From a virus, in IMG/VR virus record IMGVR_UViG_3300026311_000005, positions 1 to 38,648 of that record: a stretch of DNA of 38,648 nucleotides; one strand, written 5' to 3'. A program made the position numbers and the translations under genes. This document shows, in pieces, positions 6,804-38,648 of this stretch. The first letter of the stretch is position 1. Every line of letters starts with the position of its first letter. Under the pieces are notes generated by a model. The model ran no database searches and was not told the DNA's origin. It worked only from the letters and a program-made list of their open reading frames with translations.

Positions 6804-9800
6804 CTAATGCCCTCCCCTGAGCCTGCCGACGTAAGCATCGCTAATCTCGATCTTCAGCTCTTCGGCCACTTCGCGGGCGATCTCCCTGGCGTCCCCGCCA
6901 CCGTAGACGGTTATCGGGGCGTTCACTGTGACGCCCCCACCCCCTCCCGCCGTAGCCACCGCCTGCTGAATCATGGGAAGAAGATCCCCGAGAGGGGCGA
7001 CCACTTCGGGCGTCCGGGCGTCCCCGACGACCGCCCGGACGGGAGACGAGATGATCCCGCCGGGGGCGAACGAGAGCCAACCACCCGGAGCAAGCGTGCC
7101 GTCGGCATAGTTTCCGCCGCTGGGTCCCCACGTATCCAGGACTCCGGGGTTCATGACCTCCAGCCAAATGGGCTTCGTGGTGGGGGCCATGATCTCTGCC
7201 TCCAGACGATCCAACTCGGTCATCGCGGGGGATATGTCGGCGAGGACGGGGGAGATTTTCTCCGTCTTGATGTCGCCCTCCAACTTTTCCAGCTCGGTAT
7301 TCGCCGCAGCCGGATCGAGTTCCAGGTCGACTTCGACTGCGTACTGGAAGTAATTTTGCGCTTCGTATCCTTCTTTGGCCCCCTGACCGGGCCCCGCCCA
7401 TCCTTCCGTCGGGCCGATGTAAGACCTGGCGAACATGTCCTCCTGGGCTTCCTGCCACGCGCCGAATCCAGACCACCAACCGGGCATAATACTGGTCGTC
7501 GTTTCGGCGGAAGCTTTTTCCAGTCCGGCCTTCCCCGCCTTCGTGAAGTATTTGGCTATGGCGTCGATGGCTTCAGGATCGATCTCTTCCGGGATCACCG
7601 ATAGCAAGAAATCTTTGGCCAGTGATACCGTACTTTTCTCGTAATCCCAGGGGTTCGTGATGATTCGATAGGCTGCTTCTGCATCGGAGCCGAGTTCGCC
7701 GACGATCTGGCTCAGAGAATACAGATCGTCGGCGAACTCGCGGAGTCCCTTCTTTGTTTTTGATCCGTCGTATTCCTCCCAGAAGAGGGCCTCTCGGAGC
7801 GCGGAAGCTTCTGGTGATACTTTTGCCGTAACTTCTGCGATGTAAGGCTCGCCGGCGTCGATATGCTTTTGAAGCTCCGCGTTTATTCCAGTTGTATCTA
7901 TATTATTCGCTATATTGTAAGACCGCTGCTCCAGCATCCCTACAAGACGGCCCCACCAACTGAGGGCGGCCTGGCCCCCAGCCTCCTCGAACGCCTCGGG
8001 ATCGGCTAGCTTGAGATCTGCTAATTGAGTTTCGATATCAGAAGCTTCTGACGCCGTGATCAGCCCGTCCTCGAATGCCGCCCAACCGTCTTCTGCGACG
8101 TCTCCGAGTAGATCGGCCATCTTGTCGCCGAGCCCGCCGACGGCGAACGGCTTTTCGAGGGCCTCGCTAAACGCAGTTTCAAATTCCGCCTGGAGCCGTT
8201 CGGCTTCGGCTTCGAGGTCAAGCTTCAGTTCGGCTTGCGCCCGCATCTCGGCGGCCTCGCCGTGCTTCCCAAGAGCGTCTAACAGAGCAGCTTCGCGCTC
8301 GACGGGATCAATGAGGGCCCAAAGTCCGGGGAGCTGTGTCCGGATAGCGTTCATGGCAGCCTGAGGTGAATCATATGCCAGCCCAGTGAGCGATTTCCCG
8401 TTGATGTGGACCGCCCATTCCAATTGGGCATCGGGAGTATGTATTATTTCAATCGTATCCGACCCGGCGGATACCGTCCCCGTCCTGGAGAATCGCGGGA
8501 CCGTCTTCTCGTGGTAGTCGGCCCACCGCTTCATTTTGTCGTTCCAGGCATTCATGTAGCCGGAGGCAGCGGCGGAGCCAGCCCCCTCGCTGTCGACGTC
8601 TTTTAATTCCTTCTCGATACTGACACCGAGATCTGAAATGATATCGTTGAACGCAGCCAGATACTCATCGGCTGACATGTTGCCAGCGTTGGCGTTCAAG
8701 TCGGCCATCTGGCGGGTAAACTCAGTACCAAACTCTTTTGATCCGGATAAAACGCCATCGAGAGCAGTTATATATTCGTCTGCTGATATTTCTCCAGACT
8801 CAAACATCTCGGTGATCGGGCCGATGACGTATTCAGTAGATTCTCCTAATTGAGCATGGACATCTGAAATTGAGTTGATAGCATCCTGGTATTGAGTCGC
8901 CGATATCTCGCCTTGAGAGAACGCATCTTGGATCGGGCCTGCGATCGAATCAAAATCAGATCCAAGAGAAGTGACGGCGTTGGCAACGTCGTCCATTATG
9001 TTTTTGTACTCTTCCGCCGAAACCGTACCGTCCTCGAATGCTTGGGTGAGAGGTTCAAGAGCCTCGTCAGCCCCGTCACCAAGCTCCTCCGAAACGGTGG
9101 TCATGTCCTCCAGGATGGAGATGTAATCTTCAGCGGAGACCGTGCCGTTCTCAAATCCTTCGGTCAGGGGGCCGATCATGTCGGCGGCGGCGTCTCCGAC
9201 CTGCGAATAAATCTCAGATACGCTTGATAAGGATTTTTTGTACTGATCAGTTGTCAGTTTCCCCGTCGTCGCGAACTCTTGGAGCGAATCCATAAGTCCG
9301 GTAGTCGGACCTTTCATGCCAGCGCTCGATACCTCTTTCAATCCGCTGAGGTATTCTTGAGCGGTGAGCTTCCCAGCATCTCTGGCGGCCTGGACGTCGG
9401 CCATATCCTTCACCCACTCGTCGCCGATCTTAATCTGACCGCCCGCCGATTTTAGACCGTCGCTCAGCGCCCCAGTGACATCTCCAACGAACGAACCGAC
9501 AAGACCTCTGGTTTCAGTTCCGCCAGAGAGGACTTCACCTACCTTATTATCGAGCTTTTCTAGTCCTTCGTATAGTTCATATGCCCCTCCGGTAAGCCAT
9601 TGCCATCCCTGTGTTCCGAGACCGATGAGGGCTTGCGTGATGTCGTTCACGCCTTTCATCATCTGAGTGAGATATGGCAACAAAACGGCACCGATTGAGG
9701 TTGCAGCGACAGATATCTTTCCCTTGAAAATGTCTATCTGAGCATTTAGAGTTTCCTGAGACTTGGCGTAAGCTTCGTTCAGGCTGGAAGCGTTCTCCCA

Positions 9801-10925
9801 CGCGCTCGCGCCTGTCTCCAGCGCCGCATCGAGGCCCTCGATCTCCTTTGTGACCGGATCGACCTTCCCAACTAGCATCCCCATCATCTGGCCGCCCGTG
9901 GCCCCGAATTTCTGGAGGGCCTGCCCCTGCTCCTCGATTGGAAGCTCGGATATAGCGACGGCGAGCTCCTGGACGGTCCCGATGGCATCTTCTCGGATGG
10001 CCTCCTGGAACTCCGTGGCGTCCATGTCCAGCATCGACGAGATGCCGCTCTTGTCGTCCCTCATCATATAATTGAGGGCATCTTTCAGTGACTCGCCTGA
10101 GGTCTCGGCAGTCATGCCGAATGCCTGGAGCTGACCGATGAGAGCCGCCCACTCCGAAAGCTGATCTGGCGACGGTTTCAGCATCGCCATCTGAGCCGAT
10201 ACCTTTTTCATGCCGGTGACGATCGATTCTTCAGAAGTCGCCATCGAGTCGGCAAGATCGTTGATGGTGGACCCCATACGGTTGCCGAACTCGGTCCAGG
10301 TCATCTCGGCGGGCTTCACAACCGATCCGATTTTTCCAATAGATTCGCTTGCAGCGTCCGCCGACATGCCCCAGGCAGACGACATCTTGAGAATCGTCTC
10401 GGTATAATCGGCGATCTCTTCCGGCGCTATTCCCATCCGCCCGGCTCCGGCGGCGGCTCCGGCTATGGACTCCATCGATGCGCCAGTTTCGCCTCGGATG
10501 GCGAGGAGATCGGAGGAAAGTTTTGAGAACCCTGCTTCAGTGGTGTTCGTGACTTTTTGGACATCCACCATGAGGTCCTGCCACGTGGCGGCGCTAGAGA
10601 CGCATTTACCGAGCCCGACGCCGATCACGGCGACAGAAGCCCCGATGCCTAGAAGAGCGATCCCGGCGGGTCCGAGGGCGGTGGCGAAGGTCCCGGCAGC
10701 CTGTCCCAACATTCCAAACTGGGATGTCATCCCCGTGACGAGCTGGTTGCCGAGCTGCTTTCCAACGTCGCTGAAGTTCCCTCCCGTTAGAGACGCCTTG
10801 AGCCCGCCCGTTATGTTGGTCCCGGCATTGTGCATCATGCCAGGGATCGAGCCCAGGCTCTTCTCCAGGGGGCCGAGATCGGCCCCCACCTCTACAAACG
10901 CCGCGCCGAGTTTTTCCGAGACCAT
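6804..10925 (-). CDS. Tail tape measure protein (1373 aa)
   Basis: Very long, hydrophobic N-terminal segments, tandem repeats of about 35 aa (G.ISA.EY...) encoded around 8820-9230, glycine-rich C-terminus, position after the chaperone pair; GGAG about 9 nt upstream of the ATG. Confidence 0.85.
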   Translation of the reverse strand: MVSEKLGAAFVEVGADLGPLEKSLGSIPGMMHNAGTNITGGLKASLTGGNFSDVGKQLGNQLVTGMTSQFGMLGQAAGTFATALGPAGIALLGIGASVAVIGVGLGKCVSSAATWQDLMVDVQKVTNTTEAGFSKLSSDLLAIRGETGASMESIAGAAAGAGRMGIAPEEIADYTETILKMSSAWGMSADAASESIGKIGSVVKPAEMTWTEFGNRMGSTINDLADSMATSEESIVTGMKKVSAQMAMLKPSPDQLSEWAALIGQLQAFGMTAETSGESLKDALNYMMRDDKSGISSMLDMDATEFQEAIREDAIGTVQELAVAISELPIEEQGQALQKFGATGGQMMGMLVGKVDPVTKEIEGLDAALETGASAWENASSLNEAYAKSQETLNAQIDIFKGKISVAATSIGAVLLPYLTQMMKGVNDITQALIGLGTQGWQWLTGGAYELYEGLEKLDNKVGEVLSGGTETRGLVGSFVGDVTGALSDGLKSAGGQIKIGDEWVKDMADVQAARDAGKLTAQEYLSGLKEVSSAGMKGPTTGLMDSLQEFATTGKLTTDQYKKSLSSVSEIYSQVGDAAADMIGPLTEGFENGTVSAEDYISILEDMTTVSEELGDGADEALEPLTQAFEDGTVSAEEYKNIMDDVANAVTSLGSDFDSIAGPIQDAFSQGEISATQYQDAINSISDVHAQLGESTEYVIGPITEMFESGEISADEYITALDGVLSGSKEFGTEFTRQMADLNANAGNMSADEYLAAFNDIISDLGVSIEKELKDVDSEGAGSAAASGYMNAWNDKMKRWADYHEKTVPRFSRTGTVSAGSDTIEIIHTPDAQLEWAVHINGKSLTGLAYDSPQAAMNAIRTQLPGLWALIDPVEREAALLDALGKHGEAAEMRAQAELKLDLEAEAERLQAEFETAFSEALEKPFAVGGLGDKMADLLGDVAEDGWAAFEDGLITASEASDIETQLADLKLADPEAFEEAGGQAALSWWGRLVGMLEQRSYNIANNIDTTGINAELQKHIDAGEPYIAEVTAKVSPEASALREALFWEEYDGSKTKKGLREFADDLYSLSQIVGELGSDAEAAYRIITNPWDYEKSTVSLAKDFLLSVIPEEIDPEAIDAIAKYFTKAGKAGLEKASAETTTSIMPGWWSGFGAWQEAQEDMFARSYIGPTEGWAGPGQGAKEGYEAQNYFQYAVEVDLELDPAAANTELEKLEGDIKTEKISPVLADISPAMTELDRLEAEIMAPTTKPIWLEVMNPGVLDTWGPSGGNYADGTLAPGGWLSFAPGGIISSPVRAVVGDARTPEVVAPLGDLLPMIQQAVATAGGGGGVTVNAPITVYGGGDAREIAREVAEELKIEISDAYVGRLRGGH

Positions 10926-17404: not shown

Positions 17405-18484
17405 CTATACAGGCTCCGCGACCGCCCGAGCGCCGGCATCCGAATTCGCACCCCAGCGAGCGTGAGCCGCAACCCGACACCGCGAGCCGCAATACGAGCC
17501 GTAACCCCAATTGCCGCCCGCACGCAGCTTTACGTCTCCGGATGTACCCTGGCGTTGTATCGACCCCCGTGAGCCTGGGAGATCGAACCAAGACCACGCA
17601 GGATCTACCGTCGGATCTGTGAGTCCATCTATCCGGAAGCTCTGGTCAGCTAACCACTGGTACACGACCCCGCAACAGTCGATACATCCGCAGTTGGAGA
17701 TCATGCTCCGGCCCGCAGTGTCGAGATGGTGGCCGGTCGTGCCTGGATCTGCGGACCCGGCGATGTTCGTCTCCTCGTTCGATCCAGCTGCGAATAGTTG
17801 GAACTCTCGATCTGTCGGCAGCCTGCATCCGACAGCGCCGAGATCGTCCACGAAATCCATCCAGTCGCGAGTATCGGATATCGTGCCGCCGTTCACGCTG
17901 GCGGTGTTGACGCCCGTGCCCGATACCAGGTATATCCCGACCCAGATGTTAGCCTCCTCGCACCAAATCATTCCCTCCGGGGCGGCGATGCCCCTTGGCC
18001 GGTGCATCAGATCCCAGATCGATCCGCTCCGGTTGTCGCCGCAGTGGATGTCTCCGATCGCGTGATTCTTGAACGGGTGGCCCACTGGCAGATTCACCAT
18101 CGTCGCCGGGGTGCAGTGGAACCCCCCGATCTTTCGGGCGGTCGCGGCCGCATAACCGCTAGGAGTCGTAGAGTTGGCTGAAATCTTGATCGTAGGTGCC
18201 CGGCCGGTCGCTGGAACGCACGAGTACAGATAGAAATTTTTGCCGGCTCGGTTCGCCGGCGTCCTGTAATCGGTCCCGACGACGGTATCCCAGGTCGCTT
18301 CCAGCGCCAGATCTAGCTCGATCTGGTCGTCGAGGATGTACCCTTTCCCGCCGACGTTGACCTCAATCCCGTCAGCGGGCGACACTAGAACGTCCCGGTC
18401 GCCTGATTTCATCGACCACTTGTCGTCGATCCGCCGGACGTAGTGACCGGGTTTCGCGGCTAGATCGGGCTGGACGTAGATCAT
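17405..18484 (-). CDS. Structural-module protein with a C-terminal formylglycine-generating-enzyme-like (FGE-sulfatase type, C-type lectin fold) domain
   Basis: Motifs CRLPTDREFQLFAAGS (compare RLPTEAEWEYAARGG) and VKLRAGGNWGYGSYCGSRCRVAAHARWG...GAR (compare RGGSW...R.A.R...GFR). Confidence 0.5.
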   Translation of the reverse strand: MIYVQPDLAAKPGHYVRRIDDKWSMKSGDRDVLVSPADGIEVNVGGKGYILDDQIELDLALEATWDTVVGTDYRTPANRAGKNFYLYSCVPATGRAPTIKISANSTTPSGYAAATARKIGGFHCTPATMVNLPVGHPFKNHAIGDIHCGDNRSGSIWDLMHRPRGIAAPEGMIWCEEANIWVGIYLVSGTGVNTASVNGGTISDTRDWMDFVDDLGAVGCRLPTDREFQLFAAGSNEETNIAGSADPGTTGHHLDTAGRSMISNCGCIDCCGVVYQWLADQSFRIDGLTDPTVDPAWSWFDLPGSRGSIQRQGTSGDVKLRAGGNWGYGSYCGSRCRVAAHARWGANSDAGARAVAEPV

Positions 18485-19686: not shown

Positions 19687-20685
19687 TCACTCCGCGGGGG
19701 TGAGAGCTGCGAAGGGGAACCGGGTATCGTCGGTCTCGTTGACGAGGTTCTTCGGGTTCGGCAGAACCCATCCGAGCCGCATGGTGAGCCGGAGAGCTAC
19801 CATATCGTTCTGGAAGAGGTTGTAGACAAGCGCCCCAGCGGCGTCATGGATCGAAGCCTCCGTCGCCACCTTCCAGGTGATGTCCTGGCGGATGCCATAG
19901 ATGGCCTGGTTCCAGTCGCCCACTACCGCGAGGGCGATCGTGTCGTCCCATGCTCCGTTGTTCGGGAAGGTGATGGGGGCCCCGGCGAGCCTGTATCCGG
20001 TCGACTCCTTCATGTCGTTGAGGAAGAGGAACTGGCCGTTTGCGTCCCGAAGACCTCTGAGCCGTCCCATCATGGGGACGCCCCCCATCGCACCGTTGAC
20101 GATGTACCCGTCCTGCTCTACCAGAGAGTAGAGACCGTTGTTGGCTAGAAGGGCGTCAGCTAGATCGGCGAACGTCTCCCCGGACCCCACGTCATCCATG
20201 CTCACAGAGTTGGACTTTGCGATCGCCTGGGTCACGATCCCATCCGGCCAGGAGGCCGGGGCGATCGATCCAGCAGAATTGTAGAGGATCGACTGATCCA
20301 CCAGAACGCCGAGAGCTTCGACGAGACGGGGCTTGGTCATCCCCCACAGGTCGAAGTTCTGGGATGCCATGTCGGAGATCACGCTTTCGGGAACCGGGAC
20401 GATGACGGCTATCTCCTCCATCGTCATGGTGACGCCGGTCCAGTCCATCTTCGTGGTCTTTTTCAGGTTGGCAGCGGCATAGTTGCCCGCCACCTCATCG
20501 ACGAAGTAGGCGTTCGGAAAGCTGTTCAGCATCGGGATCCGCGTCACCTTCGAGGAGACGGGAGGCAGGCCCCTCATCTTCTGGAGGCAGAAGCTCTGAG
20601 TCGGGATGGCTTCGATGATCTGTTTGCTGTACTCAGTCGGCAGGAGTTCCTCCGACCTTCCAATAAAATTATCGTAGTCAGTCAT
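19687..20685 (-). CDS. Major capsid protein, HK97 fold (332 aa)
   Basis: Size, position after portal and scaffold, general resemblance to HK97-family capsid proteins. Confidence 0.65.
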   Translation of the reverse strand: MTDYDNFIGRSEELLPTEYSKQIIEAIPTQSFCLQKMRGLPPVSSKVTRIPMLNSFPNAYFVDEVAGNYAAANLKKTTKMDWTGVTMTMEEIAVIVPVPESVISDMASQNFDLWGMTKPRLVEALGVLVDQSILYNSAGSIAPASWPDGIVTQAIAKSNSVSMDDVGSGETFADLADALLANNGLYSLVEQDGYIVNGAMGGVPMMGRLRGLRDANGQFLFLNDMKESTGYRLAGAPITFPNNGAWDDTIALAVVGDWNQAIYGIRQDITWKVATEASIHDAAGALVYNLFQNDMVALRLTMRLGWVLPNPKNLVNETDDTRFPFAALTPAE

Positions 20686-21237: not shown

Positions 21238-22620
21238 TTATGAGCCGGGCATGAACATTTCGCCCGCGTTCTGAGTTCGGAGCATTTCAAGCGCGTCCTG
21301 AAGCGACGCGCCTTCGAGATGGTAGAGCATCCGGAGCGCTTGTTCGTCCCAGATGAGGCCCTGGGACTTGAGGAGCGCCACATTAGCGACCGTCTCCTTG
21401 AAGTCCTCGGGGAGGCCGTCTTGCCATTGAATCCCGATCGATTCCAGCTTCTCGGCCCCGGTGGACCCCCGCGCGGCTTCAAATGCCGTGAACGTCTGGA
21501 GCTCGGCTCGAATGATGGGATCGACGACGAGCTTGAGCCGGTCCACCTTCTTCAAGGGGACGAAAAGCATCAATCGGAGAGCCGTCCCGGATATTTGGGC
21601 TCCGAGTTCAGCAGGCTCAAAACAAGCGGCGCAAGTCTCGGATATGATGTAGAGCTGCCGGATTAGGGCGTCAATTTCGGCGAACGCCCCGGAGAGCTGC
21701 CCGTCCCATGTGACGTACCCGGGCGCGGCTTTGCCTTCCTCCACCGCGAAAGCCTTCCGCTTCCCGTCGAAAACCCAGGCCCCCGATTCGGTCTTGATGA
21801 ACGCACCCGAATCCTCGTTCGCGTAGAACATCGGCTCGGAGTGGACGTCCAGGATCCGCCCTATTCGCGTCAAACGGGCTTCCATCCGCTTGACGATCGA
21901 ATCCAGGTCTTTGTAATCGTCGATCAGTTTCCCGCTTGAGGTGTGTAAGTTCCGAACCTCAAATATTAGAGGTTGATCGACGCCCGTCTCTTCGATCGTC
22001 GGGGCCTCCCCCCCGCCCATGATATAGCCCGAAGCCGAGACGACGTACTCGCGGGTCTCGATTTGGCCGGGGCGGTGGATGCGAACTCGGAGCTTTCGCT
22101 GCTGGATGTGATCGACGTATCCGAGATCTTCGAGCCAGGCGACGACGTGCTCTTTGGTTCGCCCGTATTCATCGACGACCCCGAAATATCGGCCGGGGTG
22201 GACGACCTGCAGCTTGACCATCCCATCCTCCATATAGCCCTCGATGAAACCATGCCCGAACCGCGACACGTCGATCTGGCGAGCGTGCTGGAGCTTCCAG
22301 TATTCGGTTCGGTCGATGAAGGCCGAAAGGTACTTCTGCTTTTTGGATTCGGGGTCTTCGTCTCCGATGGCGCGTGGGATCTCCCCGAACAGGAAGTCGG
22401 CCCAGAGCGTCGATATTCGGCGATGTAGGTTGAGGATGAGAATGATTTTGTTGTACTCGGCCGTCTGGCTGGAGAAGAGGTCGAGAAGCGCCCGGAAGAC
22501 TTTCGTGTGCTCCCCATCGAAAAGGTGTTCGTTCTCTTCGTACCTCTGGAGCCGGTCCTTTTCCGATTCCGGTGGCCAGGGTTGGCCGACGGCGAGCGCG
22601 GCTTCAAGATCTCGAATCAT
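21238..22620 (-). CDS. Portal protein (460 aa)
   Basis: Size and position directly after the large terminase with a 4-nt overlap. Confidence 0.8.
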   Translation of the reverse strand: MIRDLEAALAVGQPWPPESEKDRLQRYEENEHLFDGEHTKVFRALLDLFSSQTAEYNKIILILNLHRRISTLWADFLFGEIPRAIGDEDPESKKQKYLSAFIDRTEYWKLQHARQIDVSRFGHGFIEGYMEDGMVKLQVVHPGRYFGVVDEYGRTKEHVVAWLEDLGYVDHIQQRKLRVRIHRPGQIETREYVVSASGYIMGGGEAPTIEETGVDQPLIFEVRNLHTSSGKLIDDYKDLDSIVKRMEARLTRIGRILDVHSEPMFYANEDSGAFIKTESGAWVFDGKRKAFAVEEGKAAPGYVTWDGQLSGAFAEIDALIRQLYIISETCAACFEPAELGAQISGTALRLMLFVPLKKVDRLKLVVDPIIRAELQTFTAFEAARGSTGAEKLESIGIQWQDGLPEDFKETVANVALLKSQGLIWDEQALRMLYHLEGASLQDALEMLRTQNAGEMFMPGS

Positions 22621-23951
22621 ATAATCCTCATCTGCCTAAGTTGTTTTGCGGCTTCCCTCGCAGCGTAGCGGTTGCCGTCGCATATATGATCAGGAGATCC
22701 CGATCCGCCCTTGATGTACATATCGATTCCTCTCTCTTGCTGCCTCTGATCCCAAAGGAGGTCATTGAACCCCCATATCGTCTTTTCGCATTTTTCGTAA
22801 ACCTTGAGTTTGCCCGTCGTGAAGAGGGTTGCGATATCTTCCAGGCCCGGCATGATCGCGTTGTCGGCGGCCCGGACGTGCGATAGATGCTGATATTTAG
22901 ACTGCTTTATCTCGCGGATGAATCCCGCCTCCTCCGGGGGTACCAGGATCTTCGCGGCGACGGGCGATCCGTTCCAGTAGCAAAGCCGGGCGATGTCCTC
23001 GATATATTCGTGGTTGACCTTCTGTTTGTGCTCTTTGACCGAATCCCAGTAGAACTCCCGGATGATATACCAGACCCCGCCCGACAAACCCCACAACGTC
23101 GCGGCGAAGGGGTTCGCGGTTCCGTAGTCGGCACCGACGAGGTACATGGTGAAGTGGTCCGGAAGAGTCGAGACGACGTAACCCGCCGACGGGTCTGGAT
23201 CGAAGAATCCGAAGACGCGCCCCTCGGCGGCGACCCAAAGACCCTCCACCCAGCGACGATACCAGATCGTCCCCGGCGCATACATCGATTTGATCCAAGC
23301 CTTGTACTCGTCGGAGAGATGGGGGTTGTCCTCCATCGTGAAATGGTAGAGCTTTGCCCGGATGCCCGGATCGTCGGCCCTCTCGACGATCTGACGGTGG
23401 AACCAGTGATTAGGGTTTTCGGGGTTCATCGTCATGATCGCTTTGGCCCCCGGGATTCGGAGACGGGACAAGGCCATCATGAAGAACGACTCCGGCCAGG
23501 TCGTCACCTCGTCGCCGTACCAGGCGTATAACGTTTTGCCCCTGATCTTAGATTCTGACTTGGAATCGTTGGCCCCGTAGATCCTGATCTTGCGGTCGTA
23601 GAGGTAGACGATCCCTCTGCCCCGGTTCTCTGAATACTTCGATCCCAGGAACTCGGCGAGCGGATCGAGGACGTTGGCTTCCAAGGTCCTCTCCGTCTTC
23701 CCGATCATGGCGAGCGGATAATGTTTCGGGGTCCTTTCGACGAAGGCAGCCCAAGCCTGTGCGCTGGTGACGGTCTTCCCCGACGAGACGGAGCCCCAAA
23801 GGGCGTATAGCTTATGATCTCCATCCAAGAAGTCAAACGCCATCTGGCGGTGCTTTTGCATCACCGGATGATGGGGCATTTTCCAGCCGTCGTAACTCAT
23901 CGAAAGCGGCTGCGATACTTCCGCGCTCGTCGTCATCGTCATCTGATCCAC
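22617..23951 (-). CDS. terL: Terminase large subunit
   Basis: Walker A motif GSVSSGKT near the N-terminus and overall terminase ATPase/nuclease layout; true start is probably an internal ATG (23843-23879) because the track start overlaps the small-subunit gene by 119 nt. Confidence 0.9.
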   Translation of the reverse strand: MDQMTMTTSAEVSQPLSMSYDGWKMPHHPVMQKHRQMAFDFLDGDHKLYALWGSVSSGKTVTSAQAWAAFVERTPKHYPLAMIGKTERTLEANVLDPLAEFLGSKYSENRGRGIVYLYDRKIRIYGANDSKSESKIRGKTLYAWYGDEVTTWPESFFMMALSRLRIPGAKAIMTMNPENPNHWFHRQIVERADDPGIRAKLYHFTMEDNPHLSDEYKAWIKSMYAPGTIWYRRWVEGLWVAAEGRVFGFFDPDPSAGYVVSTLPDHFTMYLVGADYGTANPFAATLWGLSGGVWYIIREFYWDSVKEHKQKVNHEYIEDIARLCYWNGSPVAAKILVPPEEAGFIREIKQSKYQHLSHVRAADNAIMPGLEDIATLFTTGKLKVYEKCEKTIWGFNDLLWDQRQQERGIDMYIKGGSGSPDHICDGNRYAAREAAKQLRQMRII

Positions 23952-24805: not shown

Positions 24806-25033
24806 TCATTCATGCCCCGGCCAATGGGCCACCGGCTGGCGTTGATAGCGGCGGGGCTTCTTGATGCCGTGGACCTTGCCCCGCCAGTATTGGACCGCCT
24901 TGGCATAGCACCCGTTGCCGACGATGTCGGCTATCTCCTGGTCTGTCAGGCCCTCGGCGACTCGGGCCGCCACCCACCGGCGGTCCGTCAGGAGGGGGTA
25001 TTTCACCCGCCTCGGATATTCTCCGGATGGCAT
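24806..25033 (-). CDS. Small helix-turn-helix DNA-binding protein (75 aa)
   Basis: Segment LTDQEIADIVG resembling sigma-70 region 4 / LuxR-type HTH; GGGAGA 4 nt upstream. Confidence 0.45.
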   Translation of the reverse strand: MPSGEYPRRVKYPLLTDRRWVAARVAEGLTDQEIADIVGNGCYAKAVQYWRGKVHGIKKPRRYQRQPVAHWPGHE

Positions 25034-25567: not shown

Positions 25568-25819
25568 TCACCTCACAAAATCCATCGCTTCCATCTTCTT
25601 TTGCCAGAGCCAATCGGGGATCTCGATCGTCCCGCCTTCCAGCTTAATCTGGCTTTTTGGGAGCCAATAGCCGATTTTCTTGACGTCCATCCCGTCGGCT
25701 ACATGGACGACCTCCAGCAGCAGCCCCTTCTCGGTCTCGGCTCCGATCCGGTGAGTCGTCGATACCCGGACGCCTTCCAGGTTGATCGACGCCTTCTCAG
25801 TCAGTTGGAATATCACCAT
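25568..25819 (-). CDS. Hypothetical protein (83 aa)
   Basis: ORF track; followed by a micro-ORF with a strong GAGGTGA motif. Confidence 0.3.
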   Translation of the reverse strand: MVIFQLTEKASINLEGVRVSTTHRIGAETEKGLLLEVVHVADGMDVKKIGYWLPKSQIKLEGGTIEIPDWLWQKKMEAMDFVR

Positions 25820-26081
25820 TTAGAGCCTCCGCGAAGATGCGCCAGTTTATGCCGCGCCGCCAGACCACTCCCGTTTGGGAACCGTTCCGGACCTTCTGGA
25901 TTATGCCATCCTCCTTGAGCCGGATGGTATCCCGGCCCCGGGGCGGGTGATTGAGATCCCGCATCCGAAACTCGCCAACGGGCATTTCGAGGACCGCCAA
26001 ATCAAGTCCCCTCTCTTTCAGTACCTCGGCGTGACGCCGGGCCATCGCCGGATTTCTGTATATTCCACCAGGTCGTGACAT
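25797..26081 (-). CDS. Hypothetical protein (94 aa)
   Basis: Start taken as the ATG at 26081 with GGGAG upstream (ORF track start 26123 is TTG). Confidence 0.35.
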   Translation of the reverse strand: MSRPGGIYRNPAMARRHAEVLKERGLDLAVLEMPVGEFRMRDLNHPPRGRDTIRLKEDGIIQKVRNGSQTGVVWRRGINWRIFAEALNGDIPTD

Positions 26082-26129
26082 ATCTCCCTCTCTTTCACAT
26101 ATTTTTAGGCTATAATAATCCAAAACATA

Positions 26130-26326
26130 GTAAGATCTTACTTTTACTTATCCACGCTTGTAAAGCGCGGACATGTAAACATCTTACTTATTCGCTTTTC
26201 TCTCTGTATCTATCCTCCTTCCTCCAACTAACCACCTATCCAAAAACACCCGAAATCACGAGCATTTTGTAGTTAGCTGGAACCCCTTTAGTAAAGGATC
26301 GCTCAAAAGTAAAAGTAAGATCTTAC
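26130..26326. promoter_or_regulatory. AT-rich control region bounded by perfect inverted 18-bp elements, each containing the 12-bp palindrome GTAAGATCTTAC
   Basis: GTAAGATCTTACTTTTAC at 26130-26147 and its exact reverse complement at 26309-26326; degenerate third site near 26175-26188; TATAAT-like and polypyrimidine tracts between them. Confidence 0.5.
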
Positions 26327-26333
26327 AACTTAT

Positions 26334-26813
26334 TCACCAATCTACACCCTCCGATCCTTGCCAAAGTGGAACCTTTGCCCTCGCCAATTCGACGAGATGG
26401 TCCCGATAATCCTGAGTAATTCGAACTTGCTTTCCGTTGCCCCGACCCCGCGCCGATTCGATGATGTACTTATCGGGCTGAGCCGAAAGCGATTTGGCAA
26501 AATGTGTCATGTTCTGGCGACGATTCTTGCCCATATCGAGAAGCTTTCCTGCGTCCTCGAACGATATCGCCCTTGGGAATCGTTCAAGAAGAAGAGAATC
26601 GATTTTCGACAGTCGGCCTTTGGCGATAGCAGAGTTGGAGGGCCGAAGGGTTCCTGTCTCAAGCCGAGATAGCCTTTTCCGGTCTAGCGCTCGTTCCAGC
26701 GCCACCTCTTCCCGGAGAGCATCTATCTCGGCTTGCATTGCCCTTCTCATTTCTTCCATATCCGACTTAAGGCTTTCGATGGCGGCCCGTATAACGTCAT
26801 CAGATTCGCCCAA
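26334..26813 (-). CDS. Hypothetical protein (159 aa), possible regulator
   Basis: ORF track (TTG start); N-terminal coiled-coil-like region. Confidence 0.35.
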   Translation of the reverse strand: MGESDDVIRAAIESLKSDMEEMRRAMQAEIDALREEVALERALDRKRLSRLETGTLRPSNSAIAKGRLSKIDSLLLERFPRAISFEDAGKLLDMGKNRRQNMTHFAKSLSAQPDKYIIESARGRGNGKQVRITQDYRDHLVELARAKVPLWQGSEGVDW

Positions 26814-27535: not shown

Positions 27536-27672
27536 GTGTCGCGTCGAGTCGAGTCAGGTCCGGTCGTGGCAGTCGCGTCGAGTCAGGTCGGGTCGGGTCG
27601 GGTCGTGGCAGTCGAGTCGCGTCAGGTCATGTCGAGTCGCGTCGAGTCCAGTCGGGTCCGGTCGTGGCAGTC
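27536..27672. repeat. Pentanucleotide array 1: about 27 tandem NNGTC units in three blocks, each ending in GTGGCAGTC
   Basis: Read directly: GTGTC GCGTC GAGTC GAGTC AGGTC CGGTC GTGGCAGTC ...; 5-bp periodicity, six GAGTC units. Confidence 0.8.
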
Positions 27673-27696: not shown

Positions 27697-28332
27697 GTGG
27701 CAGCAAAAGCAAAAGCGCCCGCCCAGAGCGGGCCTATAACCCTGAAAAGGATCGAGTTGGAAACGGTTGTCGTCCCGATCGTGGGGACCTCTGAGCTGAT
27801 CGTTCACAAGTGGAGCGATAAAGCCAAGCGCCAGATGCTAGACAAGCAGATGAAACCGGGGACCAGATCAAAGAAGGAAGCAAAAGACCCGGTAGCCGAC
27901 TACGAGGCGTCGAAATATAAGACGCCCGAAGGCAAAGATGCGATGGTGACGACCGCCTTCAAGAAGGCGATGGTTGACGCCCTCCGCTACTTCGACGGTG
28001 TGAGTATGGTCCTGGGAAAGACCGCCTTCTTTGTAGAGGGCGAGTACGTCGAGCTGGAGGGCGAGCCCCGGATGAGAGAAGACATGGTGAGGCTGGACGG
28101 CGGTGGGTCTGCTGACATCCGATACCGGGCCGGGTATCCTGAATGGAAGACGAAGCTCACCATCACCTACGCAAAGGATATCCTCACTATGGAGTCGGTC
28201 CTGTCCCTGGTAGAAGCAGCGGGACAGACCCAGGGCGTTGGCGAATGGAGGCCGTCGTCCAAGAAGACCACCGGTCCCTTCGGTCGGTTCACGATCGACA
28301 CGTCCCGGAAAATTGAGGTGATCACTGCATGA
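27697..28332 (+). CDS. Hypothetical protein (211 aa), first gene of the repeat-flanked plus-strand cassette
   Basis: ORF track; GTG start with GGAG about 11 nt upstream; no recognisable motif. Confidence 0.5.
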   Translation: MAAKAKAPAQSGPITLKRIELETVVVPIVGTSELIVHKWSDKAKRQMLDKQMKPGTRSKKEAKDPVADYEASKYKTPEGKDAMVTTAFKKAMVDALRYFDGVSMVLGKTAFFVEGEYVELEGEPRMREDMVRLDGGGSADIRYRAGYPEWKTKLTITYAKDILTMESVLSLVEAAGQTQGVGEWRPSSKKTTGPFGRFTIDTSRKIEVITA

Positions 28333-28853
28333 CCAAAATGGTATATGCCTGGAGAGAGGGGCGGAGCGCCAGCCCCTACCTTTCCAACGTATCCCCCCAG
28401 GTGGTCGGTGAAGAGCTGGAGAAGGTCCGAGAACAGGGGGGGGGGATGATCTTTCCCCGTGCCGTCATCGATCACGCCCGACCATCCGACTCGCCCCTCC
28501 ATTCATGCTTTGAATGGAACGACACGGAAGCCGCCGAGAAGTTCCGAATCGTCCAGGCGAGGGGGGTCATCAAGTCTGTCGAGATCGTCGAGATCAAAGG
28601 CAAACCACTCCCCTCCCCCATCGTAGCCAACGTCAGCGTGACGCGCCGGGCCGTTGTGCCGGGCGATCCAAGGATCAGGTATTATGAGAGCACTCCTCTC
28701 GCCCTCCAGGACCCGGAGCTTCGGGACCAGGTACTCCAGAAGGCTCTTAGGGAGCTGGAATCCTGGCGGGAACGATACGACGCCTTTACCGAGTTCAGTC
28801 TGGTCTTCGGCTCGATAGAAGCCATCCAGAAAAAGATAAGATCTTCAGCCTGA
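28329..28853 (+). CDS. Hypothetical protein (174 aa), second gene of the cassette
   Basis: ORF track; 4-nt overlap with the upstream gene. Confidence 0.5.
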   Translation: MTKMVYAWREGRSASPYLSNVSPQVVGEELEKVREQGGGMIFPRAVIDHARPSDSPLHSCFEWNDTEAAEKFRIVQARGVIKSVEIVEIKGKPLPSPIVANVSVTRRAVVPGDPRIRYYESTPLALQDPELRDQVLQKALRELESWRERYDAFTEFSLVFGSIEAIQKKIRSSA

Positions 28854-28860: not shown

Positions 28861-28868
28861 TTTTCATG

Positions 28869-29025
28869 GCGGTCGGGTCAGGTCGTGTCGGGTCCGGTCG
28901 AGTCGAGTCGTGTCAAGGCAGTCGGGTCCGGTCGGGTCGAGTCATGTCTCGTCACGTCGAGTCAAGTCAAGGCAGTCGCGTCGTGTCGTGTCATGTCACG
29001 TCGTGTCGCGTCTGGTCGTGGCAGC
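28869..29025. repeat. Pentanucleotide array 2: about 26 tandem NNGTC units in three blocks punctuated by AAGGCAGTC, AAGGCAGTC and GTGGCAGCC
   Basis: Read directly; same unit type and orientation as array 1. Confidence 0.8.
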
Positions 29026-29060
29026 CGTGGCGTGTCTTGCTGCCACTATTCTATTTTTAT
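29017..29060 (+). terminator. Putative intrinsic terminator of the plus-strand cassette
   Basis: Stem GTGGCAGC, 13-nt loop, GCTGCCAC, followed by TATTCTATTTTTAT. Confidence 0.45.
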
Positions 29061-29170: not shown

Positions 29171-30529
29171 TCATGGCGCGAAGTCCTCCAGCGTCGCCGG
29201 GGGCCTCTCCGCCGCCGCCAGTCTAGCCTCGGCGATCTCGACGTACTCAGGCTCAAGCTCGATCCCGATATATCCGAATCCCTCCTCTTTCGCGGCGACG
29301 AGGGTCGTACCCGATCCGGCGAATGGGTCCAGGACCGTCCCGCCTGGGGGGGTGACGAGCCGGACTAGGTAGCGCATCAGCTTGAGGGGCTTGACCGTGG
29401 GGTGGTGGTTTTGGCGATGGGTTTTGCCTCGGAGATATGGGTTGTCAATCGGGGTGTTTCGTCCATCGTCTGTGATCCGATCTGGCATCCCCTCCAGCCC
29501 CCGGTTCCGTTCGGCCCGGCTCGCCTTCGCTACATATACGATCGGGTCCGGGTCTATCTGGAGGAAGAAGCGGGCGGCGGTGCCTTCTCTATCATGCCAT
29601 GTATGTTGCCCCCCCTTCAACCCGAACATACCACCCGGATCAGCTGATACTTTACCGCGGCCTTCTACAGAACCGCCGCTCTTCAGATGCCCCGATTGCT
29701 CCGCTATGAGCCGTACCGCACATCCTTCGACGCAGTCCTCCCCTCGCCGAACGCACCCCGGCGCGTGGCCGAGGATGAGGTTCGCAGGCCAGCGGCCAGA
29801 AGGGTTCTGGACGAACTCCGACCGATTCGTGTCTTTATATCCGCTTGGATATGTTCTGTTTTTTTGAACATGCCGGCCAGACGAAAGGATATCTCCCGTC
29901 CCGATCCGGCACCCGTCCACATTCACCGCGCCGCAACCCCACCGGAGGACGTTCGCCGCAACCGTCTTCTCTGATAACGGTTTGCGAGCCATCACGATCG
30001 GTTCATGGGCGGGCTTAAGAGCGGTCCCCCACCCGTCCCATTGGCGGGCGGCATCGGTGGCGGGGGCGGTGATGTCGACAGTTTTGCGGCTACCATCCGC
30101 TGGCAATGCGGGACCGTTTGCATATTGACTACCTCTGCCACCTGTTGCATTATTCCCCCAAACTTCTGATTGCCCTATCACGTCCCGCTCGGCCCCAGCC
30201 GCCCGGTCGATCGCCTTCGACACGTCCAGACTTTTCGGGAATCCTGATCCATATACCCAAGAGATACAGTCCCTGATCTCGAGTCCCGCGTCCTCGATCG
30301 CGCAAGCCAGCCGATGATAGGTCCGAGTCCCTCCGAACGCCAGCAGATAGCCGCCGGGCTTCAGGACGCGCCACGCCTGCCTCCAGACCTCCTGATCGTA
30401 GGCTATCCCTGACCCATCCCATTTCTTTCCCATGAACCCCAGCTCATAAGGCGGATCACAGACGATCGCGTCGATAGAGTTCTCCTCCATTTCGGCCATC
30501 CGTTCACGGCAATCTCCCTGTAATATCAT
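29171..30529 (-). CDS. DNA methyltransferase, beta-class amino-methyltransferase (N6-adenine or N4-cytosine), orphan
   Basis: Motif IV IVCDPPYE near the N-terminus and motif I VLDPFAGSGTT near the C-terminus; Cys-rich middle region; no adjacent restriction endonuclease. Confidence 0.85.
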   Translation of the reverse strand: MILQGDCRERMAEMEENSIDAIVCDPPYELGFMGKKWDGSGIAYDQEVWRQAWRVLKPGGYLLAFGGTRTYHRLACAIEDAGLEIRDCISWVYGSGFPKSLDVSKAIDRAAGAERDVIGQSEVWGNNATGGRGSQYANGPALPADGSRKTVDITAPATDAARQWDGWGTALKPAHEPIVMARKPLSEKTVAANVLRWGCGAVNVDGCRIGTGDILSSGRHVQKNRTYPSGYKDTNRSEFVQNPSGRWPANLILGHAPGCVRRGEDCVEGCAVRLIAEQSGHLKSGGSVEGRGKVSADPGGMFGLKGGQHTWHDREGTAARFFLQIDPDPIVYVAKASRAERNRGLEGMPDRITDDGRNTPIDNPYLRGKTHRQNHHPTVKPLKLMRYLVRLVTPPGGTVLDPFAGSGTTLVAAKEEGFGYIGIELEPEYVEIAEARLAAAERPPATLEDFAP

Positions 30530-32259
30530 CCGAAGCCCTCCAGCGTCGCCGGGGCCTCGAAGCTAAACAGGCTTTCCTGTTCATGATTCTTAAGCCCGGT
30601 GTCCACATCGCCGTATATCGATTTGATATTTTTGGGATCACCCTTATAAAATACCAGAACGTTCTGGTGAGTCTTCCCAAGCTTCCGGTATCCCTGAAAC
30701 TGCTTATTCACCCGGATAGGGAGCGACCCCACCGACGTGATCAGGACGGCCTCATTATAAAGGGTCGCCCCGGCGTCCTGGAAGGCTTCGATGGTATCCC
30801 CCACGAAGTTACGATAGAAGCCCCGCCGATCCCGGATATCCCCCACGACAAAGCAGGCGAATCGATCCGGCTTCAGCATCCCCACCGACGCCGCGACGAT
30901 GCCCCGATAGGTCTTGAGGAAGCCCTCATAATCCATGGTGGATAAGTCGCGGGGGTCGTCTGAGTATCTTTCGAGGTCGAAATATGGAGGACATGAAAAG
31001 ATGAGATCGTACCGACCGGGGGCGATGGCGGCGATGTCCTGGCTATCCCCGGCGATCCATCTGGGGTGGGTTCCGCCGTGTTTAATCGTGTCATTGTATC
31101 GAAGCTTCCGCCAGCTGTCCTTTGGCATGTATGAAACGAGGTCCCCGCCGCCTGCGTCGAAATGATCGCATATCCGCCCCGCCTCCTCGTCCCCGAAAAT
31201 ACGATCGAGAGACGCTCGGAAAGCCCGATACGCTGGAATCCTTTCTCCCTGGTTGTAGCATTTCAAGAGCTTATATCGGTTACGTACTATCAAGGTGTTA
31301 TTATCATTTAGCGTAAATGGGGACGCGATGCACCCGAAGGGCTTGTCTGTGGTAAAATGGAGTCCACACAGATCCTCGTCCGTCTTAAATGGGCATCGCC
31401 CGGAAGTTTCAAGCAGGCCGCCTTTTATAGACCCGCCCCGGCCCCGGATCGTCTCCTCCTCGTCTGGGTGGATGGTTATGATGGTCCCGCTAGGCGAGGT
31501 AGATGATTGACAGCAGCTCGCGTGACAAACTGATCGGATATAATCCGGATCGCATCCATGAAACGGTGTCCTGGCCATCGCGGCCGATACCTTGATCTGG
31601 ATCTTTCCATTATCAGACGGAGGACATTTCAACCCTATAAAATCCCATTGATCCTTATTCGCGGCTATCTGCTCCGGTCGGAGATCGACGCCGGTGTACT
31701 GGAAGCCCGTCAACGCCGCCACGATGCCCCGGACGGACCCGCCCGCGAAGGGGTCGAGGACATGGCCGCCGGGGGGCGTGAACCATCGATATATCAACTC
31801 ACAGAGGACGGGATCAAATATCGACGTGCCGCTCTGTGGCTGAGCCGCAAGAATCTTGCGGCTCACTTCGTCTAATTCGTCATCGGGCCGATTGCCCGTC
31901 ACCCAAGTCAATCGATCGCCTATCGGCCTCCCCGCGCCGTCTCCTCTCTCCCGGTGGGAGTAATCGCACGCGGGACGAGGACTCCCACCGGGAGACGCGT
32001 TCTTATAGTGGCTTCTGGCTTGCTCGGAGAAGCCGAGCAAGCCATTTTTATATTTTTTCGAGCCGTCGAATCCTATCTCCCCGTTTTGGCGGCTTATCGT
32101 GGCGGCGTCGGAATAGACATGCACACCGACGCCGCCACGTCCTATCTCGCTCTTGATCCCCTTCGCCAACCAGAACCTCTTCCTCTCCTGCCAATAGCCC
32201 TGCCGGGCGTCGAGGACGGAGAACGGCGGCATCACGAATTTATCGGATAACGTTCCCAC
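30526..32259 (-). CDS. DNA methyltransferase with a long Cys-rich insertion between motif I and motif IV, orphan
   Basis: N-terminal MPPFSVLDARQGYWQERKRFW, motif I VLDPFAGGS, motif IV-like FSCPPYFD; about 270 aa between them with many Cys; likely true start is the ATG at 32232. Confidence 0.75.
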   Translation of the reverse strand: MGTLSDKFVMPPFSVLDARQGYWQERKRFWLAKGIKSEIGRGGVGVHVYSDAATISRQNGEIGFDGSKKYKNGLLGFSEQARSHYKNASPGGSPRPACDYSHRERGDGAGRPIGDRLTWVTGNRPDDELDEVSRKILAAQPQSGTSIFDPVLCELIYRWFTPPGGHVLDPFAGGSVRGIVAALTGFQYTGVDLRPEQIAANKDQWDFIGLKCPPSDNGKIQIKVSAAMARTPFHGCDPDYIRSVCHASCCQSSTSPSGTIITIHPDEEETIRGRGGSIKGGLLETSGRCPFKTDEDLCGLHFTTDKPFGCIASPFTLNDNNTLIVRNRYKLLKCYNQGERIPAYRAFRASLDRIFGDEEAGRICDHFDAGGGDLVSYMPKDSWRKLRYNDTIKHGGTHPRWIAGDSQDIAAIAPGRYDLIFSCPPYFDLERYSDDPRDLSTMDYEGFLKTYRGIVAASVGMLKPDRFACFVVGDIRDRRGFYRNFVGDTIEAFQDAGATLYNEAVLITSVGSLPIRVNKQFQGYRKLGKTHQNVLVFYKGDPKNIKSIYGDVDTGLKNHEQESLFSFEAPATLEGFG

Positions 32260-37721: not shown

Positions 37722-38648
37722 CTACATCACCCTCGTCGGTACCCTGACCTCGAACGACTCCACGAGGAAGTCGCTAGTGAGATTATTCGAGCTGGGCGCT
37801 ATCCTCGATATCGCCAGCCTCACCCTTTGACCGGCAGACCAACCAAGGGAGCTGACGGTCGCCGTCCAGGTGTAGATGACGGGCCGGTTCTGGGTGGCGT
37901 TGCAGGCTAGGTCGCCTGAGTCGCTGGCGGTCGAGTAAGCAGTATCGACAGACCCTGCGCCGCTCGACAGGACCAACTGCTTCACCCTGAACTTAACGTT
38001 CTTGCCGGCGGCCGCCGTCTTGGCCCACCCCACGAGGGCGAACGTTATGGTTCCCCCAGTGTTGATGTCGGCCGGCACCACGAAGGCCGGCGCCTGGGCC
38101 GTCTCCTCGGTAGTGTCATCGAATGCAAGCGTAACCACCGCCTGGTTCGTCCCATCCAATAGGTATTCCTCGGGCGAGTTGGCGGCGTCAAGGTTGAATG
38201 CGGTGGGCGGCAGCACGAGGATCCTCGTGCTGTAGAGATACGTCCAGGCCGGATCGTCTGCACCCATCGACAGAACGGAGTACTGGGAGCCTTTGGCGAG
38301 CCTGGCGGCGTCACCGGATCCCCGGTATAGCAGGTCTCCCCGGGTCGTGAGGATCTGGTTCAGAAGGGTCGCCAGGGTGGCCCAGGCCGGATCGTCTGCA
38401 CCCATCGACAGAACGGAGTACTGGGAGCCTTTGGCGAGCCTGGCAGAAGTTCCGTCCGAGCGGTATAAGAGATCTCCCCTTGTGGTCAGGATCGTATCTA
38501 GTATCGCCGCCGGAGTCGAAACCCCTCCGAACAGAGGCCGGTCGTCCCGGTAAATGTAGCTGTTGGAGCCGTCGTCGGCGTCATCGATATGAACCGATCC
38601 CACCCGATGATAGACCAGGCAGATCGGGACGGTATTCGCGACGAGAGC
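37722..38648 (-). CDS. Tail fibre protein, C-terminal portion (38522-38648 duplicates 1-127); contains a tandem 46-aa repeat
   Basis: ORF track 37722..38603 with no stop upstream to the window end; internal repeat ILTTRGDLLYR...ARLAKGSQYSVLSMGADDPAW occurs twice; last large gene of the tail cluster. Confidence 0.6.
   Translation of the reverse strand, partial: ALVANTVPICLVYHRVGSVHIDDADDGSNSYIYRDDRPLFGGVSTPAAILDTILTTRGDLLYRSDGTSARLAKGSQYSVLSMGADDPAWATLATLLNQILTTRGDLLYRGSGDAARLAKGSQYSVLSMGADDPAWTYLYSTRILVLPPTAFNLDAANSPEEYLLDGTNQAVVTLAFDDTTEETAQAPAFVVPADINTGGTITFALVGWAKTAAAGKNVKFRVKQLVLSSGAGSVDTAYSTASDSGDLACNATQNRPVIYTWTATVSSLGWSAGQRVRLAISRIAPSSNNLTSDFLVESFEVRVPTRVM
38522..38648. repeat. Terminal direct repeat, copy 2 (identical to 1-127)
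   Basis: Same comparison as above. Confidence 0.9.

Follow-up and report, generated by a model that had tools for sequence, protein, structure and literature searches.

The DNA analysed here, referred to as the window, is the 38,648-nucleotide (nt) IMG/VR virus record IMGVR_UViG_3300026311_000005. A 127-bp direct terminal repeat lies at its two ends (1-127 and 38522-38648), and the window is therefore a complete tailed-virus genome assembly of about 38.5 kb, circular or terminally redundant. In this study, we investigated an AT-rich gap of 252 bp between two co-directional genes of the minus strand. The upstream gene, encoding a protein of 159 amino acids (aa), ends with a stop codon at 26334-26336, and the downstream gene, encoding a protein of 94 aa, begins with an ATG at 26081. 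Sequence comparison indicates that this gap is a real control cassette, conserved in about 10 lineages of tailed viruses of methanogens. In the order in which the minus strand is read, the locus contains the following features (related loci are given by L numbers, and > and < denote half-sites):

26334-26813, minus strand: gene for the 159-aa protein, proposed binder of the arms, with a predicted 52-residue N-terminal helix and C-terminal winged helix
26307-26326: distal arm, minus-strand reading GTAAGA TCTTAC TTTTAC TT, half-sites > < <
26285-26297: small palindrome CCTTTAGTAAAGG with one further half-site, specific to the group of the window and L012
26242-26268, minus strand: A-run, hairpin and U-run, AAAAUGCUCG UGAUUU CGGGUGUUUUU, terminator-like, for the upstream transcript
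26237-26246, minus strand: degenerate TATA-like box TTTTTGGATA, aligned with TTTATATA of L021, L022, L023 and L026
26211-26232, minus strand: conserved core GTTAGTTGGAGGAAGGAGGATA, predicted transcription-start region and first transcribed bases
26175-26187: third, degenerate dyad GTAAACATCTTAC, half-sites > < with one extra base
26155-26167: palindrome CGCTTGTAAAGCG with one half-site, its stem bases varying among close relatives
26130-26149: proximal arm, minus-strand reading AA GTAAAA GTAAGA TCTTAC, half-sites > > <
26082-26108, minus strand: leader CTAAAAATATGTGAAAGAGAGGGAGAT with the Shine-Dalgarno-like GAGAGGGAG, joint of the mosaics described below
25797-26081, minus strand: gene for the 94-aa protein, first of the downstream operon, function not assigned

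A preliminary description of this DNA reported inverted 18-bp elements, GTAAGATCTTACTTTTAC at 26130-26147 and its exact reverse complement at 26309-26326. Both were found as described, and the perfect repeat really comprises 20 nt in each arm (26130-26149 and 26307-26326) with 157 nt between, or 22 matches in 24 if extended. Both 20-nt arms carry GTAAGATCTTAC. The distal arm begins 8 nt past the stop codon of the 159-aa gene, the proximal arm ends 48 nt ahead of the downstream ATG, and the centres of the two arm palindromes are 185 bp apart. The degenerate third site of the same description corresponds to the dyad at 26175-26187. In 2000 shuffles of the gap, the longest perfect inverted repeat had a mean of 7.1 nt and a maximum of 12 nt, and the next-best perfect inverted repeat elsewhere in the genome has 13 nt. 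The 38.6-kb genome contains three copies of the dyad GTAA-N4-5-TTAC, all of them within the gap (26130, 26175 and 26315), against a chance expectation of 0.12; three occurrences were reached in none of 100 shuffles. Seven of the genome's 15 GTAARA hexamers likewise fall within the 197-bp segment from arm to arm, the arms included. The GC content of the gap is 36.5% compared to 58.2% for the genome, and the lowest-GC 250-bp windows of the genome sit here, as the preliminary description stated; its wording "by far" was slightly generous, given a GC content of 0.43 in another AT-rich stretch at 2101-2400. These results demonstrate that the bracket formed by the arms is non-random and unique in the genome.

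We then compared the element with its relatives. Scans with the arm and the conserved interior found 12 copies in viral and metagenome contigs (the window group), and 185,579 species genomes contained no copy; homologues of the flanking proteins led to the more distant copies. Near-identical copies differ by 6 substitutions in 421 nt, all located between or beside the sites and none inside them. The 12-bp perfect palindrome to which the preliminary description had drawn attention is present in the window and is not conserved: L010 and L011 have CTAAATCTTTAC or ATAAACATTTAC instead. Unlike the perfect palindrome, the half-site pattern > < < ... > > < is conserved. L010 and L011 also have an unrelated GC-rich dyad in place of the CCTTTAGTAAAGG palindrome. 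The arm of L011, CTAAATCTTTACCTTTACCTT, is matched by its exact complement (24 of 24 positions). Between the window and L011, changes in both arms keep the complementarity at 7 positions in the MAFFT register or 12 in the ungapped register. AGATCT, and with it GATC, lies within the window-group palindrome (26130-26141 and 26315-26326), and GATC is absent from L010 and L011. Operator methylation is conceivable, given that two adjacent N6/N4 DNA methylases are encoded in the genome at 29171-32259.

The mosaic structure of these relatives shows which gene the arms accompany. In L012 and L013, the 159-aa gene and the arms are kept and the downstream gene is different, the gene after the leader (L012 959-1135, L013 1108-1248) being unrelated to the 94-aa gene. 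In L010 and L011, the upstream gene is 53% identical to that of the window, the arms are changed, and the downstream gene is nearly identical. The arms therefore belong with the upstream gene. No lineage of the window group, these two pairs included, differs in the first 26 nt of the leader, and in L012 and L013 divergence starts 2 bases before the ATG. Since divergence begins just before the ATG after an invariant leader, the leader acts as a recombination joint between modules. A 12-nt sequence of the leader, CCCTCTCTTTCA (minus strand TGAAAGAGAGGG), at 26086-26097, recurs within the 94-aa coding region at 26009-26020, 77 bp away. The leader also contains TAAAAATA, which is too near the ATG to serve the downstream gene.

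Perfect inverted repeats that bracket a promoter-like segment of about 200 bp could also mark an inverton, in which a recombinase would invert the 157-bp stretch lying between the arms and thereby turn expression of the downstream operon on or off. Recombination between the arms would in addition explain why they are homogenised. The junction predicted for the flipped form (left flank, arm, inverted interior) is AACATAGTAAGATCTTACTTTTACTTTTGAGCGATCC. However, the interior has the same orientation in 12 of 12 window-group copies and in all other lineages, as read from assembled contigs, which represent the majority form only. No recombinase or integrase domain was found among the window open reading frames (ORFs) scanned, of which the small ones were covered in part; the family protein has no catalytic domain, and the arms are imperfect in several lineages. 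These results make an inverton highly improbable.

Since the arms travel with the 159-aa gene, the properties of its product bear on their function. The 159-aa protein is predicted from its structural model to consist of a long N-terminal helix of the coiled-coil type and a winged helix-turn-helix fold. Structure matches were mostly to ArsR/MarR regulators. At the sequence level, the protein had no Pfam, PHROG or PDB match beyond coiled-coil noise, and Pfam searches with 48 family members likewise gave only such noise, with no match above the threshold of the MarR/ArsR profiles. The protein thus differs from MarR/ArsR regulators in lacking sequence-level membership (no Pfam, NCBI-type or PDB sequence match) and also in its 52-residue N-terminal helix, which is not part of the MarR/ArsR dimer interface. 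An exhaustive HMMER search yielded 49 representatives and a profile search 96 members, so that the family comprises at least 96 proteins. In the family alignment, the N-terminal helical part is variable and a C-terminal domain of about 80 aa is conserved. Members occur in a metagenome-assembled genome (MAG) of Methanothrix, in a 3-Mb metagenome contig and in virus-like contigs of 40-66 kb, and one sits in a 66-kb virus encoding the helicase MCM. A tblastn search with two family members found none among 50,697 phage records, and no description of the family or the cassette was found in the searchable literature.

To cover the family, we added seven distant loci from six lineages (L007, L021, L022, L023, L025, L026 and L027, with L025 and L027 being close relatives), whose proteins share about 25-35% identity with that of the window. 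This gave 11 readable family loci in 10 lineages. An inverted bracket follows the family gene in all 11, starting -22 to +19 nt from the stop codon and spanning 170-223 bp across lineages, mostly 197-202 bp, with the arms 146-176 nt apart and an interior GC content of 0.32-0.44. A perfect inverted repeat of at least 12 nt was present in 8 of the 11 targets and in 0 of 413 control segments of the same loci. The arms of three distant loci read as follows:

L022: distal CCTAAAATTTTAGGCTTTAGTCC, proximal GGACTAAAGACTAAAATTTTAGG
L026: distal GGTAAAATTTTTACCTTTTACC, proximal GGTAAAAGTAAAATTTTACC
L023: distal GTGTAACCATTACACCGTACAC, proximal GTGTACGGTGTAATGAGTACAC

The pattern > < < in the distal arm and > > < in the proximal arm was found in 9 of 10 mapped loci; L007 has only a > < dyad in each arm. 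Each arm contains three occurrences of one half-site, whose sequence is specific to the lineage. These half-sites number 18-48 per kb in the segment and 1.3-9.7 per kb over the whole locus. The highest whole-locus values come from L011 and L012, loci of 1-2 kb of which the segment makes up much, and the density is 1.3-3.4 per kb in loci of at least 7.9 kb. Extra half-sites near the position of the third dyad are present in L021, L022 and L025 and absent in L023, L026 and L007. Half-sites and predicted recognition helices of the family proteins are paired as follows:

CTAAA (L021, L022, L025 and L027): TREQNMTHFGK, identical in all four
GTAAA (L026): TRKQNMYYFGK
GTAAG/A (window): NRRQNMTHFAK
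GTGTA (L023): TRRQRMTDFGK

The predicted recognition helix thus tracks the half-site across lineages, and the exchange of Glu for Lys or Arg alongside the change of the first base from C to G is chemically sensible. The link between helix and half-site is confounded by phylogeny, which weakens it as an argument. Taken together, the predicted winged-helix fold, the linkage of the arms to the gene, the family-wide bracket and the tracking of half-site by helix indicate that the 159-aa protein is likely the binder of the arms.

The interior of the cassette also has a constant anatomy. In all lineages its order and direction are hairpin, TATA box and purine-rich core. The hairpin and its U-run occupy the same position in 9 of 9 lineages; the stem sequences differ, and the sense strand is always the more stable one (in the window, -9.8 kcal/mol for the sense RNA versus -1.1 for the antisense). 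Archaeal termination needs mainly a U-run. A stable stem-loop followed by a U-run lies after the gene on the transcribed strand, and we regard it as a predicted terminator. Directly after the hairpin, TTTATATA is central and constant in orientation in L021, L022, L023 and L026, and is followed on its 3' side by a TAGTT(T)GG and purine-rich motif. The core at 26211-26232 has one variable position (G or A) and is otherwise invariant in 12 of 12 window-group copies. The purine-rich stretch predicted to be transcribed first is followed by 40-50 bp of very AT-rich DNA. In L026, the TATA box and about 45 nt of downstream sequence are repeated 345 bp further on without arms, and the repeated unit is therefore read as a promoter plus the sequence transcribed first from it. 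After this second unit of TATA box and TCTTAGTTTGGGAAAGGGAAAGAATCTAAT (L026 11040-11210), ACTTTAGATGCA occurs as three direct repeats; these are possibly sites of a different regulator. The order of hairpin with U-run, TATA box and purine core suggests that the centre is a terminator of the upstream operon followed by a promoter of the next operon. TATA-like boxes also occur in other gaps of the window genome. A first TATA candidate outside the bracket, TTATTATA at 26113-26120, was dropped because it is absent in L010 and L011. A scan for sigma-70 promoters and intrinsic terminators gave weak matches of 9 in 12, and the sigma-70 model is not relevant if the host is archaeal.

The complementarity of the arms can be explained without any protein if they act as RNA. 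They would then pair in a read-through transcript and close a 157-nt domain, or the 3' untranslated region (UTR) of the regulator would pair in trans with the 5' UTR downstream, with an effect on processing, stability or translation. The preservation of complementarity through both-arm changes between the window and L011 is in line with this, as is the identity of the L022 arms, which reaches beyond the half-sites. Folding of the minus-strand RNA gave -76 kcal/mol (z = -5.3), the arms forming the closing stem; however, the plus strand also reaches z = -5.0 because the stem dominates. Neither G-U pairs nor any other strand-specific signature were seen within the arms, L010 has A-G and C-A mismatches, and Rfam scans at gathering thresholds and with E up to 1 gave no match. 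The predicted hairpin with U-run and TATA box lying in between would put the two arms on different transcripts. A stem would also leave the threefold use of the half-site in each arm unexplained; this repetition is needed for a protein site and not for a mere stem. Finally, in L007, L021 and L027 the arms are degenerate while the half-site pattern persists. We therefore give an RNA element only a small probability.

On balance, we lean towards reading the gap as a junction of terminator and promoter, flanked by operators to which the upstream 159-aa protein binds, possibly with looping. The separated sites share one recognition sequence, which is consistent with predicted paired operators. This agrees with the proposal of the preliminary description that they serve an oligomeric regulator, a proposal favoured by the family-wide bracket, the lineage-specific half-sites that track the recognition helix, and the central TATA box and hairpin. 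On the minus strand, the stop codon of the 159-aa gene would be followed by the distal operator (> < <) and by the hairpin and U-run, where the upstream transcript would end. The next transcript would begin at the TATA-like box with TAGTTGG and the purine-rich start region. Beyond these would come the weak third dyad, the proximal operator (> > <) and the Shine-Dalgarno leader, which leads into the packaging and structural operon. The 159-aa protein would bind two composite operators, located about 95 bp upstream and about 75 bp downstream of the predicted start, and its binding would control the firing of the enclosed promoter or passage from it, whether by repression or by activation. One possible way is that the N-terminal helix bridges both arms, as with the two flanking operators of the E. 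coli gal operon. The degenerate TATA box of the window would suit an activator-dependent promoter.

Several observations weigh against this reading of a controlled junction. The TATA box of the window, TTTTTGGATA, is degenerate, so the promoter could be weak or lost, the operon then being transcribed by read-through from upstream. The TATA box and the predicted start both lie outside the two operators, which is unusual for archaeal repressors. The centre-to-centre distances of the palindromes vary from about 171 to 197 bp across lineages and the helical phase is not constant; a rigid loop is therefore not favoured. The identity of the arms exceeds what a protein needs (24 of 24 in L011; 33 of 34 in L022, including bases outside the half-sites), which points to gene conversion between the arms or selection for pairing. 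The promoter has no obvious co-directional target in L022 and L027, where the following gene is on the opposite strand.

The genes that surround the cassette differ among lineages. It lies ahead of packaging or structural genes in the window, L010 and L025, in L022 near the start of host-like genes, and in L026 after tail and baseplate genes, where it heads a module with an ERF recombinase and the replicative helicase MCM. These positions bear on the idea that the element is a structural or mobile DNA site, that is, a miniature inverted-repeat transposable element (MITE)-like insertion, a cos or pac site, an attP site, or a plasmid-type centromere bound by the upstream protein. The terminal inverted repeats and AT-richness resemble a MITE; however, each genome has one copy at a fixed position beside the family gene, no target-site duplication flanks the arms, and the conserved core had no match in the 185,579 species genomes, only homologous loci being found in the viral and metagenome collections. 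The positions upstream of packaging or structural genes would suit cos or pac, but the L026 cassette, between baseplate and ERF/MCM genes, is not tied to terminase, no contig ends within the element, and the 127-bp terminal repeat lies elsewhere. The location of the L022 cassette recalls an attachment site; no integrase was found nearby, tRNA scans found nothing, and no tRNA gene was found at the L022 provirus boundary. P1 parS follows parB, and a cis site right after the stop codon of its binder recalls that pair, but no ParA-like ATPase adjoins any family gene. A site of this kind has, in our view, a very low probability.

The preliminary description also raised the possibility of an origin with an unwinding element. 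Archaeal origins have inverted binding sites that flank an AT-rich centre next to the gene for a DNA-binding protein. The cassette has this layout in form, with function being predicted: the 159-aa winged-helix protein would be the initiator, and the inverted composite sites would be origin recognition boxes around an AT-rich unwinding centre. The low GC content of the interior and its purine-rich initial transcript followed by the very AT-rich stretch are compatible with an origin. The central promoter, through its purine-rich first transcribed bases, could provide an R-loop or a primer, in the manner of the phage T4 and ColE1 origins. The L026 cassette heads the ERF/MCM module, and the L022 bracket is nearly perfect (33/34) though no co-directional gene follows. 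In the related virus Caudoviricetes sp. vir515 (BK063672.1, L001), homologues of the 49-aa and 83-aa genes of the window are separated by the gene for a 1056-aa DNA primase and by a 197-aa gene (BK063672.1 276-4039). At the same place, the window (25797-26813) carries the 159-aa gene, then the AT-rich gap and then the 94-aa gene. Among the window ORFs scanned, none was recognised as encoding a replication protein. The vir515 197-aa protein was unrelated to the profile of the 159-aa family, and a module swap is no proof of equal function.

Other results speak against an origin. Cumulative GC skew, one of the checks proposed in the preliminary description, falls monotonically through 26.2 kb to a minimum near 33 kb, with no turning point at the gap; this evidence is weak, since skew in small viral genomes follows the direction of transcription. 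The 159-aa protein has no AAA+ domain of the Orc1/Cdc6 type or other initiator domain, and its fold matches are mostly to ArsR/MarR regulators. The centre is a predicted directional terminator and promoter, and L026 reuses the promoter unit without the arms. Arrays of GTCNN pentanucleotides (GTCGA, GTCGG, GTCAG and others), with about 24 repeats at 27538-27658 and about 30 at 28864-29036, could be iteron-like and are an alternative candidate for the origin. They flank the only two plus-strand genes of the region, 27697-28332 (phrog_4652) and 28329-28853 (phrog_15946), both without assigned function. A GTC motif has been noted downstream of TATA boxes in SIRV rudiviruses (PMC5569661). The layout of inverted sites beside a DNA-binding gene, together with the replacement of the primase module, keeps the origin alive as an option, although we judge it unlikely. 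Somewhat less likely still, the cassette would be a self-contained replication module of primase-less archaeal tailed viruses, combining a winged-helix initiator with a promoter-derived R-loop or primer, which would explain its position exactly where a related virus carries primase.

The downstream operon runs from the 94-aa gene, whose AlphaFold2 model was uninformative (pLDDT 50), to the putative TerS, TerL, portal, capsid and tail genes. The putative TerS lies about 1.7 kb from the cassette, with five to six small ORFs in between. The following packaging and structural genes were located in the window:

22617-23951, minus strand: TerL
21238-22620, minus strand: portal
19687-20685, minus strand: HK97-type capsid
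6804-10925, minus strand: ORF of tape-measure size (1373 aa)

The ribbon-helix-helix and p1/p2 proteins mentioned in the preliminary description were not identified: Pfam and PHROGs gave nothing useful on the neighbouring small proteins, and a 75-aa ORF at 24806-25033 had weak, sub-threshold helix-turn-helix matches. Two observations concern the tail region. For the 359-aa product of 17405-18484 (minus strand), the hits were phrog_11262 ("tail protein", 3.8e-47) and, in Pfam, "Mtd second domain" (4.7e-13). In the diversity-generating retroelements of Bordetella phage, Mtd is the variable protein that binds the receptor; the window showed no reverse transcriptase. A 138-bp tandem repeat of 1.8 copies with 85% matches lies at 38244-38493, within a tail-fibre-like gene (37722-38603).

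The host is probably a Methanothrix-like archaeon, as judged from gene content: the 159-aa family occurs in the Methanothrix MAG and in the MCM-encoding virus, and early genes are common to the window and vir515, whose host is recorded as Methanosarcinales. Among GenBank phage records, vir515 is the only deposited relative, with short matches; its early proteins share 37-93% identity with those of the window and its TerL 33%. A TerL 95% identical to that of the window lies on a 3-kb scaffold (L019, JALOAP010000476.1) placed in a Dehalococcoidia bin, which counts against an archaeal host. This placement is at odds with the host indicated by vir515 and by the Methanothrix loci; the scaffold was probably misbinned. 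The virus is present in samples from anaerobic digesters, which are the source of contigs IMG 3300002821, 3300038674 and Ga0334884.

The proposed mechanism, a DNA-binding regulator with paired operators, is of a familiar class. In the gal operon of E. coli, with OE, OI and GalR, and in lac, ara and deo, paired operators act with DNA looping. The cassette resembles these systems in that two predicted operators about 100-200 bp apart flank a predicted promoter and leave it uncovered, with one presumably oligomerising DNA-binding protein and a weaker auxiliary site in between. It differs in its archaeal TATA box instead of sigma-70 hexamers, in a predicted winged helix with a long N-terminal helix instead of the LacI/GalR fold, in composite operators (a palindrome plus a third half-site), in the enclosed terminator-like hairpin, and in the position of the regulator gene, which lies immediately upstream and has the first operator beside its stop codon; looping here is hypothetical. 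The last gene of an early operon is also a regulator in lambda, where Q acts at the PR' late-gene junction. As there, the site of action would lie in the next short gap, and small genes followed by terminase and structural genes lie beyond it. However, Q works as an antiterminator and engages RNA polymerase at one site, whereas the cassette has two mirrored DNA sites and a protein of a different fold, and in L026 the controlled module is one of replication and recombination and not of late genes.

Two archaeal systems can also be compared. In archaeal origins, an unwinding element is flanked by inverted origin recognition boxes, with orc1/cdc6 adjacent. The cassette shares with them polar composite sites (a dyad with an extension) inverted around an AT-rich centre, adjoining the gene of the presumed winged-helix binder; it differs in having no Orc1/Cdc6 AAA+ protein, no skew signal and a directional terminator-promoter centre. 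The archaeal-virus transcription factors SvtR, AvtR, F55, E73 and C68 are mostly ribbon-helix-helix proteins from crenarchaeal, hyperthermophile viruses, with sites at or near the promoter (PMC5569661). Like the protein studied here, they are small viral proteins, associated with imperfect inverted or tandem repeats near promoters with a TATA box and B recognition element that are used by the host RNA polymerase (PMC5569661). The present system differs in its coiled-coil-type helix and winged helix, its occurrence in tailed viruses of methanogens and its bracket of about 200 bp. What is new is the protein family, the composite mirrored operators, the enclosed terminator-promoter unit and the archaeal viral setting.

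Almost nothing is known of gene regulation in viruses of methanogens. Here, an unannotated family of at least 96 members is paired with a cis element recognisable from the sequence itself. Because the half-sites are specific to each lineage, the family offers about 10 natural specificity variants, a ready system for studies of winged-helix specificity. In an archaeal setting, it would become possible to test junctions between terminator and promoter, operators that sit on both sides of a promoter and leave it uncovered, and possible DNA looping. If the element were an origin, it would define a new type of initiator. Under either reading, the cassette marks a module boundary at which these viruses recombine.

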